Shown in pieces: positions 15,384 to 16,112 of a stretch of DNA of 64,000 nucleotides. The notes below the pieces were generated by a model. That model worked only from the letters and a program-made list of their open reading frames with translations, made no database searches and was not told the origin of the DNA. The DNA is from Candidatus Falkowbacteria bacterium (GTDB lineage: Bacteria; Patescibacteriota; Patescibacteriia; Patescibacteriales; UBA12075): the NCBI GenBank assembly GCA_043801965.1, contig JAZDLN010000012.1:11115-75114 (forward strand). The letters are read 5' to 3'. Numbering within the stretch: position 1 is the first letter of the stretch; every line of letters starts with the position of its first letter. A program made the position numbers and the translations under genes.

Positions 15384-16112
15384 ATGAAATATAATGCCGA
15401 TATCCACCATCGCCGGTCGATACGGTTAAAAGGATATGATTATTCCCGGAACGGCGCATATTTTATTACCGTTTGCGCGCAGGACCGGGAATGTGTATTC
15501 GGAAAAATTGTGAACGGTGGAATATATTTAAACGATGCGGGCGAAATGGTCGATCGGCAATGGAATGAATTGCCGAATCGTTTTCGTAACGTCCGGTTGG
15601 GTGAATACATCGTCATGCCGAATCATTTTCACGGAATTATATTTATCGTCGGTACGCCCCCGGTAGGGGCACCCCTTGTGGGCGCCCCGAACAACGGCGC
15701 CCCGAACAACGGCGCCCCGCACGCGAACGCTGGGAATACGATACCCGGCGCACCCACCGCGTTTAGGGCACCCACCACGTTTAGGGCACCCACCGCGTTT
15801 AGGGCACCCACCACGTTTAGGGCACCCACAAGGGGTGCCCCTACGGTAACGGGTTGGACGGCGACAAATACGGTCGTTGGCGGTATTATCGGGGCGTTCA
15901 AATCGATCACGACCAACGAATATATTCGCGGGGTAAAAACCGATTTTTGGCAACCGTTCGACGGAAAATTGTGGCAACGCAATTATTACGAACATGTTAT
16001 CGGGAATGAAAACGAATTGAATCGTATCAAACAATATATAATCGATAACCCGTCAAAATGGAAAACGGACCGGAATAATCTGGATTTACGCGAACCGGCA
16101 GAAAAAATATGA
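15384..16112 (+). CDS. REP-associated tyrosine transposase (RAYT / IS200-like Y1 transposase) with expanded low-complexity loop
   Basis: N terminus RRSIRLKGYDYS..AYFITVC, HUH motif MPNHFHGIIFI, C-terminal FKSITTNEY..LWQRNYYEHVI (catalytic Tyr region) and IDNPSKW. About 55 extra residues, encoded by the repeats at 15663-15844, lie between the HUH and Tyr motifs. There is no SD or own promoter, and the start is 22 nt after the secA stop. Confidence 0.8.
   Translation: MKYNADIHHRRSIRLKGYDYSRNGAYFITVCAQDRECVFGKIVNGGIYLNDAGEMVDRQWNELPNRFRNVRLGEYIVMPNHFHGIIFIVGTPPVGAPLVGAPNNGAPNNGAPHANAGNTIPGAPTAFRAPTTFRAPTAFRAPTTFRAPTRGAPTVTGWTATNTVVGGIIGAFKSITTNEYIRGVKTDFWQPFDGKLWQRNYYEHVIGNENELNRIKQYIIDNPSKWKTDRNNLDLREPAEKI
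15663..15844. repeat. in-frame REP-like inverted doublet with internal tandem repeats inside the RAYT ORF
   Basis: GTAGGGGCACCCCTTGTGGGCGCC (15663-15686) and GGCACCCACAAGGGGTGCCCCTAC (15821-15844) are 23/24 reverse complements. Each is GTAGG plus a 7-bp-stem hairpin. Between them lie 2.5 copies of a 15-bp repeat (15681-15720) and 4 copies of an 18-bp repeat GCACCCACC(G/A)CGTTTAGG (15750-15821). Confidence 0.85.

Follow-up and report, generated by a model that had tools for sequence, protein, structure and literature searches.

A doublet of REP-type hairpins embedded in frame in a RAYT gene of a Candidatus Falkowbacteria bacterium

This report concerns an element that lies within a protein-coding gene of a Candidatus Falkowbacteria bacterium, in a 64-kb stretch of DNA (64,000 nucleotides; assembly GCA_043801965.1, contig JAZDLN010000012.1, positions 11,115 to 75,114) that we refer to as the window. 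The gene (positions 15384-16112 of the window, + strand; 242 amino acids (aa), from the list of open reading frames (ORFs)) is a subclass 2.4-like member of the REP-associated tyrosine transposases (RAYT, also called TnpA-REP), where REP denotes repetitive extragenic palindromic sequences. We find that a loop of this intact subclass-2.4-type RAYT is encoded by an in-frame doublet of a widespread GTAG-footed REP, arranged like a REPIN (an inverted pair of REPs), together with tandem arrays derived from the hairpin arms. The trait itself is published; the window contributes a host from the Candidate Phyla Radiation (CPR), as well as a case in which 64 kb contain no extragenic copy. We consider it likely, with a probability of roughly 0.7, that the enzyme seeded its cognate REPs locally, and that these were tolerated in a permissive loop and expanded by slippage.

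The hairpins, the arrays and the encoded enzyme

Two 24-mers in the gene (15663-15686, + strand, and 15821-15844, - strand) mismatch at only 1 of 24 positions, as had been recognized in a sequence-only reading of this DNA. That reading described a 7-bp stem; the stem of the window units (GGGGCACCC/GGGTGCCCC) is in fact 8-9 bp and encloses the loop CTTGT. In the left unit (15663-15688, + strand; GTA GGGGCACCC CTTGT GGGCGCCCC), GTAG is on the sense strand, the stem has 9 bp with one A.C mismatch, and the encoded peptide is V-G-A-P-L-V-G-A-P. In the right unit (15820-15844, - strand; GTAG GGGCACCC CTTGT GGGTGCCC), GTAG is on the antisense strand, the 8-bp stem is perfect, and the sense strand reads R-A-P-T-R-G-A-P-T. 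Taken more broadly, positions 15663-15692 and 15815-15844 form an inverted repeat of 30 nt that is 90% complementary, with 122 nt between its arms. A search of the 64 kb with the 24-mer, allowing up to three mismatches, revealed no third match, and none is expected by chance (100 shuffles).

The two repeats previously seen between the units were also recovered by Tandem Repeats Finder (TRF). The 15-nt array (GGCGCCCCGAACAAC; 15681-15719, + strand) has 2.6 copies with 100% matches, and each copy comprises the left hairpin's inner (3') arm and a 7-nt spacer. The 18-nt array (GCACCCACCRCGTTTAGG; 15750-15829, + strand) has 4.4 copies with 95% matches and a score of 146, which makes it the top-scoring tandem repeat of the whole window; its copies comprise the right hairpin's inner arm and a 10-nt spacer, and alternate between G and A, so that the effective period is 36 nt, present twice. 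The resulting layout is symmetric: REP, arm repeats, 30-nt spacer, arm repeats, and inverted REP, with the feet facing outward. Such high identity between the units (96%) and within the arrays (95-100%) means that the layout is young.

Both units and both arrays are in frame within the open ORF 15384-16112 (+ strand), whose translation is exactly the one quoted in the earlier reading. The G+C content of the insert is 0.68, versus 0.44 in the remainder of the gene, and the region 15650-15860 (211 nt) folds at -55.6 kcal/mol (z = -2.8 relative to shuffles). An antisense ORF (15629-15982, - strand, 117 aa) is also open across the element, and again reads VGAPLVGA...GAPTRGAPT.

The product of the ORF is 100% identical to the NCBI protein "MAG: transposase [Candidatus Falkowbacteria bacterium]", and homologues of the protein are labelled "REP element-mobilizing transposase RayT" by the Joint Genome Institute (JGI). 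Its sequence contains an HUH motif, NHFH (N80-H83; 15621-15632, + strand), on strand beta3; a WQRN motif (W197-N200; 15972-15983, + strand); and a Tyr motif, YIIDNP (Y218-P223; 16035-16052, + strand). Residues H81, H83, W197, R199, N200, Y218, I219 and N222 are invariant in an alignment of 41 sequences. The sole sequence match in the PDB is E. coli TnpA-REP (4ER8), with which about 30 residues align. In this alignment, the WQRN region is placed against IWQPRFWEH, i.e., the GTAG-recognition region of the E. coli enzyme, in which W94, Q95 and R104 have a role (PMC6006769), and YIIDNP is placed against DYIYINP. On that basis, the catalytic tyrosine is assigned by homology to Y218, which is on the helix 209-221 of the AlphaFold2 model. 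The earlier claim that the insert separates the HUH and Tyr motifs is therefore right as to position, although it took the tyrosines of NYYEH, and not Y218, to be catalytic.

The AlphaFold2 model has a core with a predicted local distance difference test (pLDDT) score above 90, and an unstructured segment, residues 94-160, with pLDDT below 50, placed between the HUH strand (81-88) and the helix 165-186. The whole insert is contained in the disordered beta3-alphaC loop of this model (residues 89-164; 15648-15875, + strand). A check of whether the loop is exposed had been proposed earlier; in our model the loop is disordered, and a published model of the subclass places it peripherally (PMC6006769).

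When the model was compared with the PDB by using Foldseek, the top 29 matches were all Y1 HUH transposases (IS608, ISDra2, IS200 and 4ER8), with probabilities of 0.94-1.00 for 28 of them and 0.69 for the 29th, E-values of 1.4e-3 or weaker, and template-modelling (TM) scores, normalized to the target, of 0.5-0.67. Profile searches scored below their cut-offs, both for Pfam Y1_Tnp (PF01797; 21.6 bits versus 23) and for NCBIfam REP_Tyr_transpos (50.4 versus 80), and the matches cover only the C-terminal half of the protein, because the 70-residue insert splits the Y1 domain. Given the motifs, the alignment with 4ER8 and the fold, we judge the low scores to reflect a limitation of the profiles and not a lack of membership. 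The protein ends 16 residues past W226 and has no C-terminal tail domain. From its motifs and predicted fold, then, the gene encodes an intact and complete HUH/Tyr single-strand DNA nuclease-ligase; in particular, neither the HUH nor the Tyr motif has been lost, a loss that would have spoken against the original proposal.

The hairpin in other genomes and in homologous genes

We scanned one genome per species for the pattern GTAGGGGCACCC-N5-GGGYGCCC. The hairpin was found in at least 120 genomic stretches, from Acidobacteriota, Chloroflexota (Caldilineaceae, Chloroploca), Desulfobacterota, Planctomycetota, Bacteroidota and others. Among the matches listed, several genomes contain multiple copies, and many of the matches form +/- doublets; 3 stretches adjoin a RAYT-like gene, and 117 do not. 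Since the hairpin occurs mostly away from RAYT genes, the units are real REPs, in agreement with their initial classification from the GTAG foot and the G+C-rich palindrome.

To survey the family, 80 metagenomic loci were fetched, and the gene could be parsed in 72 of them. The loop contains at least one unit in 62 of these 72 homologous genes. Between the HUH motif and the conserved tryptophan, a + unit precedes a - unit in 36 genes. Double-foot palindromes alone are present in 11 (10 with one and 1 with two, "DD"), a lone - unit in 10 and a lone + unit in 5, and no unit was detected in the remaining 10. When the units are taken as ordered patterns, 31 genes are "+-" and none is "-+" alone. 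Altogether, the loops of homologues contain 103 REP-type units, versus 0.03 in shuffled loops. At the protein level, the left (VGA...) and right (...APT/SPL) peptide signatures both occur in 113 of the 119 proteins parsed among the best 120 matches. The suspicion that such loops are a family trait is thus borne out, and homologues do carry palindromic DNA in the same loop; a loop lacking it would have counted against the proposal. The distance from HUH to W varies from 56 to 135 aa among homologues and the loop itself from about 20 to 100 aa, and the only conserved loop residues in the 41-sequence alignment are the (nearly) invariant V94 and G95, which are encoded by GTAGGG.

Evidence for conservation of the hairpin comes from covariation, which we assessed in units picked solely by their invariant anchors, GTAGGGGC...GCCC. 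All four inner stem pairs are complementary in 39 of 44 units with 5-nt loops (17 distinct stems) and in 37 of 47 units with 6-nt loops (15 distinct stems), where about 4 are expected with shuffled partners. In 35 distinct homologue units, in which GTAGGGGC...GCCC is invariant, 98.9% of cells are paired (79% in shuffles), and double-sided changes number 68 versus 20 expected, a count reached by 0 of 500 shuffles. Pairing collapses to 32-55% when the register is slid. Two of the covarying pairs are at third codon positions (Ala GCN and Val GTN) in the usual frame. The right units occur in two reading frames (34 versus 25). Together with the covariation, this indicates that the DNA hairpin is what is conserved, and not the encoded peptide. 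The left unit occurs in one frame in 49 of 55 cases, although two of its frames are free of stops.

The left and right stems differ from each other in 33 of 36 homologues, yet each is self-complementary. What functions or is inherited is thus the individual hairpin rather than the long inverted repeat, and the near-identical pair in the window is a rare, young case (3 of 36 homologues). A long-range REPIN hairpin was considered as a general functional form and rejected on the same grounds, the z-score of -2.8 for the folded region being only modest.

Mismatches in the stems offer a further clue. On the GTAG strand, units from loci L121-L200 and the window have 11 G.T mismatches and 1 A.C mismatch, the latter in the window's left unit, and the bias toward G.T is also present in units antisense to the mRNA. 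This bias is suggestive of a hairpin that matters as single-stranded DNA rather than as mRNA, but it is weak, as 5 of the 11 come from one recurrent unit whose bulge alignment is ambiguous.

Units are concentrated at the gene itself. The loop has 6.1 units per kb; the density drops to 1.37 within 200 nt of the gene, then to 0.205 (0.2-1 kb), 0.081 (1-3 kb) and, in the most distant bin (3-10 kb), 0.025, so that the gradient between the loop and that bin is 240-fold. Units occur within the gene as well as outside it in 29 loci, and in 13 of these a loop unit and a flank unit have an identical stem. A flanking unit within 1 kb is found in 22 of 67 homologues. Flanks of 8 kb or more (8-20 kb) were examined for 27 loci, of which 13 have loop units but none in the flanks. 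Two adjacent RAYT paralogues on a Chloroflexota chromosome (OZ244814.1; L025:139-2368) have a different REP type in each loop: one has a GGGCACCC/GGGCAGCC pair, and the other has the double-foot GTAGGGGCGGTTCGCGAACCGCCCCTAC, a palindrome that recurs about 300 nt downstream. In a Longimicrobiaceae locus (L015:1768-2274), several GGGCACCC units are located in and after the RAYT loop, and the frame of the C-terminal core differs from that of the N-terminal part; this gene is likely a pseudogene made by REP activity. Immediately upstream of two other RAYT genes are direct-oriented REP arrays (4 units at 91-nt spacing in L128:57-355, and at least 7 at about 69-nt spacing in L147:62-498), which look like clustered REP blocks rather than REPINs.

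Loops are not the only place in which units are found. Hairpin-derived peptides are present at other sites of the same protein family (P0091, P0092, P0043 and P0058). The N-terminal beta-hairpin has VGASLVDAQ or RTANPRGCPI, and KTGKHKGLPQ is found close to the N-terminus, so that more than one permissive site can accept a REP unit in frame.

Tandem arrays, in turn, are common: they occur in 32 of 73 loops, with periods that are a multiple of 3 in 32 of 41 cases, and 24 of 39 arrays overlap a unit. There are two allelic series whose members are at least 96% identical outside the loop (excepting two members with divergent or truncated C-termini); in one, a 7-residue unit is repeated 3-12 times, and in the other, a 9-residue unit is repeated 0-11 times. 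This variation supports the earlier suggestion that the loop is a hot spot for repeat expansion.

Known systems and the origin of the embedded units

The closest known system is subclass 2.4 of TnpA-REP (TnpA-Y1), which equals RAYT group 4 of Bertels et al. 2017 and whose unique feature is REP sequences inserted in frame within the tnpA-REP gene (Quentin, Siguier, Chandler & Fichant, BMC Genomics 2018, PMC6006769). The loop had been put forward as a family trait without an explanation. The trait proves to have been described already in that work, and a full-text search of the literature from 2018 on for in-frame REPs within TnpA-REP genes listed PMC6006769 as its only relevant match.

The hallmarks of the subclass are an HuH motif NH[IFV]H, WQ, YIxNNP, a variable beta3-alphaC insertion and no tail domain (PMC6006769, motifs in Table 1). 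The REPs of the subclass, termed "long" or "double-foot", have GT[AG]G as their foot and a stem whose base consists of three G-C pairs; its proteins vary in length owing to short DNA repeats in a region modelled as a peripheral extension (PMC6006769). The window protein likewise has NHFH, W197-Q198 and YIIDNP, an insert at beta3-alphaC (residues 89-164) and no tail; its units combine GTAG with GGGCACCC/GGGTGCCC, have three G-C pairs at the stem base and lie in an open frame, and short DNA repeats occur in its loop. As its sequence agrees with each of the criteria, the protein appears to fit subclass 2.4. It differs in having D for the first N of the Y motif, as do several close homologues, and in having two almost identical units. 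The hosts of the subclass are Cyanobacteria, Bacteroidetes and "various phyla", and a large majority of its genes have flanking REPs (PMC6006769); the window gene, by contrast, belongs to a CPR bacterium and has no REP within 1 kb, nor anywhere in the 64 kb. Given the 22 of 67 homologues with a flanking unit, flanking REPs are common rather than defining.

More distant systems share parts of this arrangement. The E. coli REPtron (YafM, PDB 4ER8, with REPs in bacterial interspersed mosaic elements (BIMEs)) and group 3 enzymes have the same HUH/Tyr Y1 fold, a strand-specific substrate with GTAG at the foot of a hairpin, and WQ...R residues that contact GTAG. However, these enzymes fall into subclasses 2.2 and 2.5 and have extragenic REPs that flank the gene; in addition, the E. 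coli REP requires a bulge, whereas the window units are perfect or near-perfect palindromes. REPINs (Bertels & Rainey 2011) are likewise inverted REP pairs with a short spacer that can fold into one long hairpin, but they are defined as extragenic, multi-copy populations, while the doublet in the window is intragenic and single-copy in 64 kb, and the units of most homologues have unlike stems and form no long hairpin. In-frame palindromes are also tolerated in REPs within ORFs (Di Nocera et al. 2013) and in Rickettsia palindromic elements, which add 20-80 residues, typically in loops or linkers. Those cases are sporadic and their host genes are unrelated to the mobilizing enzyme; here, the gene is the enzyme's own, a single loop is affected, and nearly every member of the family carries the insertion.

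How might the units have come to lie in the loop? The loop holds two GTAG-footed hairpins, which is the substrate architecture cut by characterized TnpA-REP enzymes. For enzymes of groups 2 and 3, and for those groups only, GTAG plus a hairpin has been established as the determinant of recognition and cleavage (Corneloup et al. 2021, PMC8266576). By analogy, the embedded units are presumably the cognate substrate of the enzyme encoded around them. Local action with a bias in cis would deposit REP units preferentially at and around the enzyme's own gene, in keeping with the density gradient, the stems shared between loop and flank, the paralogues with their own REP types, the units at other permissive sites and the broken frame in L015. 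Because only stop-free, frame-keeping insertions in a permissive peripheral loop would leave a working gene, units would accumulate in that loop. The duplicated hairpin arms could then serve as sites of slippage or alternative pairing, at which copies of the inner arm with lengths of 15 and 18 nt (multiples of 3) would be gained and lost, rendering the loop hypervariable; the arrays that overlap units, their periods in multiples of 3 and the allelic series speak for such slippage. The Gly/Ala/Pro/Thr/Arg peptide would be a by-product of the DNA, with no role of its own. Within this account, the identity is near certain; that the units are passive passengers is less so.

Several observations weigh against local seeding followed by passive tolerance. 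The status of the units as cognate substrate is drawn from enzymes of other groups. The single frame of the left unit (49 of 55) is hard to reconcile with a pure by-product, as is the near-invariance of V94 and G95 across proteins that are about 50-65% identical. The 13 of 27 long loci with units in the loop but unit-free flanks of 8-20 kb are not easily explained either, and the window is likewise without another copy in 64 kb and without space for flanking REPs. The frame bias, the invariant residues and the flank-free loci suggest active maintenance or site-specific renewal of the units. Finally, the stems of left and right units differ in nearly all homologues, to which the near-identical pair in the window is an exception.

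These difficulties lend some weight to the view that the hairpins are selected, either as a cis-element that throttles a potentially genotoxic nuclease (through the enzyme acting on extruded single-stranded DNA, or the cell acting on the mRNA) or as a protected "home" or "seed" copy that keeps enzyme and substrate together. Units in the loop are near-universal (62 of 72 genes; both signatures in 113 of 119 proteins), stereotyped as "+-" and never "-+" alone, and they are present where 8-20 kb of flank have none, as in the window. Selection would also account for stem covariation that extends to synonymous positions, for the left unit's preferred frame, for the retention of V94 and G95 in an otherwise unalignable loop, and for paralogues that each carry their own REP type. 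The excess of G.T over A.C on the GTAG strand fits the single-stranded DNA version better than the mRNA version. Di Nocera et al. have speculated that REP hairpins down-regulate RAYT expression. Nevertheless, no unit could be detected in 10 of the 72 intact genes, and 15 carry a single one; units are variable in where they lie, how many there are and how far apart they are, and some have decayed. The steep fall in density with distance resembles local transposition, and the G.T count is weak, with 5 copies from one recurrent unit. Moreover, hairpins of 8 bp are easily opened by ribosomes. On balance, we regard selection of the hairpins as a possible but rather unlikely explanation. We hold equally tentatively the specific proposal that the embedded pair is an obligatory home copy, i.e., a substrate-competent master or seed, and the sole substrate in REP-poor genomes such as that of this CPR bacterium. 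The "+-" stereotypy, the frame of the left unit, the synonymous covariation, the G.T bias and the flank-free units are all compatible with a home copy, and passive tolerance explains them awkwardly.

The other explanations fare worse. Were the loop selected as protein, as a flexible, low-complexity linker or interaction surface rich in Gly, Ala, Pro and Thr in which the palindromic DNA is incidental, one could understand that it is always open and in frame and that array periods are multiples of 3; additional domains of other subclasses may indeed mediate interactions (Quentin et al., PMC6006769). However, one DNA unit read in different frames yields unrelated peptides (APT versus SPL types, and VGA... 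versus RRGNP...), conservation and covariation operate on the DNA, wobble positions included, and the loop ranges from about 20 to 100 aa with no structure in the model and no conserved residues except those from GTAGGG, so that we consider this reading very unlikely. It is just as improbable that the 30-nt inverted arms flank an invertible, phase-variable segment of 122 nt that toggles between two loop sequences. The element does span 182 nt (2 modulo 3) and begins on a codon boundary, and the antisense frame is open, so inversion of 15663-15844 would keep the frame and still encode VGAPLVGA...GAPTRGAPT. Yet the unlike arm stems in 33 of 36 homologues rule out homologous inversion as a general function, no invertase was noticed among the ORFs at 13.5-18 kb (where the Pfam scan covered the RAYT, the next gene and the ORF 16796-17215), and the sequence is known from one assembly only. 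Chance similarity or an assembly artefact in a low-complexity stretch was considered as well, as repeat-rich DNA is prone to mis-assembly and the copy numbers of the 15- and 18-nt repeats could be wrong. But no matches are expected by chance, the ORF is open through the insert, and the same architecture recurs in dozens of independent assemblies and in a published survey (PMC6006769), which makes this explanation scarcely credible.

Gene neighborhood and significance

The RAYT ORF starts 22 nt past the stop of secA (15361), and its TGA shares the sequence ATGA (16109-16112) with the ATG of a downstream gene for a PF06042 nucleotidyltransferase. The gene is thus tightly packed, resembling a member of an operon, and this packing leaves no space for flanking REPs of the REPtron type. 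No second RAYT copy was found within the 64-kb window. An Rfam scan of the whole window detected no family at its gathering score, and no tRNA, rRNA or riboswitch; hence the RAYT-loop hairpins are not a catalogued RNA element.

Elsewhere in the window, a perfect palindrome of 29 nt (18464-18492; GTAGGAACGGAACCATGTTCCGTTCCTAC) occurs in one copy, in an A+T-rich stretch upstream of an ATG at 18521. Its GTAGG/CCTAC ends make it formally "double-foot". We considered it as a member of the REP family in the RAYT loop and rejected it, because its stem is A+T-richer and unrelated to REPs of the GGGC type, and the palindrome is single-copy; an operator is one possibility, and a solitary REP of a different type is another. 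The ORF 1116-5027 (+ strand, 1303 aa) encodes a protein with a staphylococcal-nuclease domain (residues 431-514) and a lamin-tail domain (905-1018), and its central part accounts for the G+C maximum of the window at 2-4 kb (0.60 versus about 0.48).

The window provides a clean example of the trait in a small, gene-dense CPR genome, in which the intragenic pair is the sole copy in 64 kb. The 240-fold gradient, the "+-" stereotypy, the covariation at synonymous sites and the allelic repeat series give the phenomenon a quantitative footing. If the hairpins are merely tolerated, they illustrate the degree to which a gene is shaped by local transposition and by selection to keep its frame open. If they are maintained, the gene would be a rare case in which the coding sequence of a nuclease also contains the DNA that the nuclease acts on, either to control itself or to provide a heritable seed for REP populations; this would be relevant to the old problem of the function of RAYTs and REPs. 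Should the embedded pair be a home copy, the RAYT would act mainly on its own coding sequence, and the possible outcomes would include feedback control, programmed hypervariation of the loop, and assured co-transfer of enzyme and substrate upon horizontal transfer.

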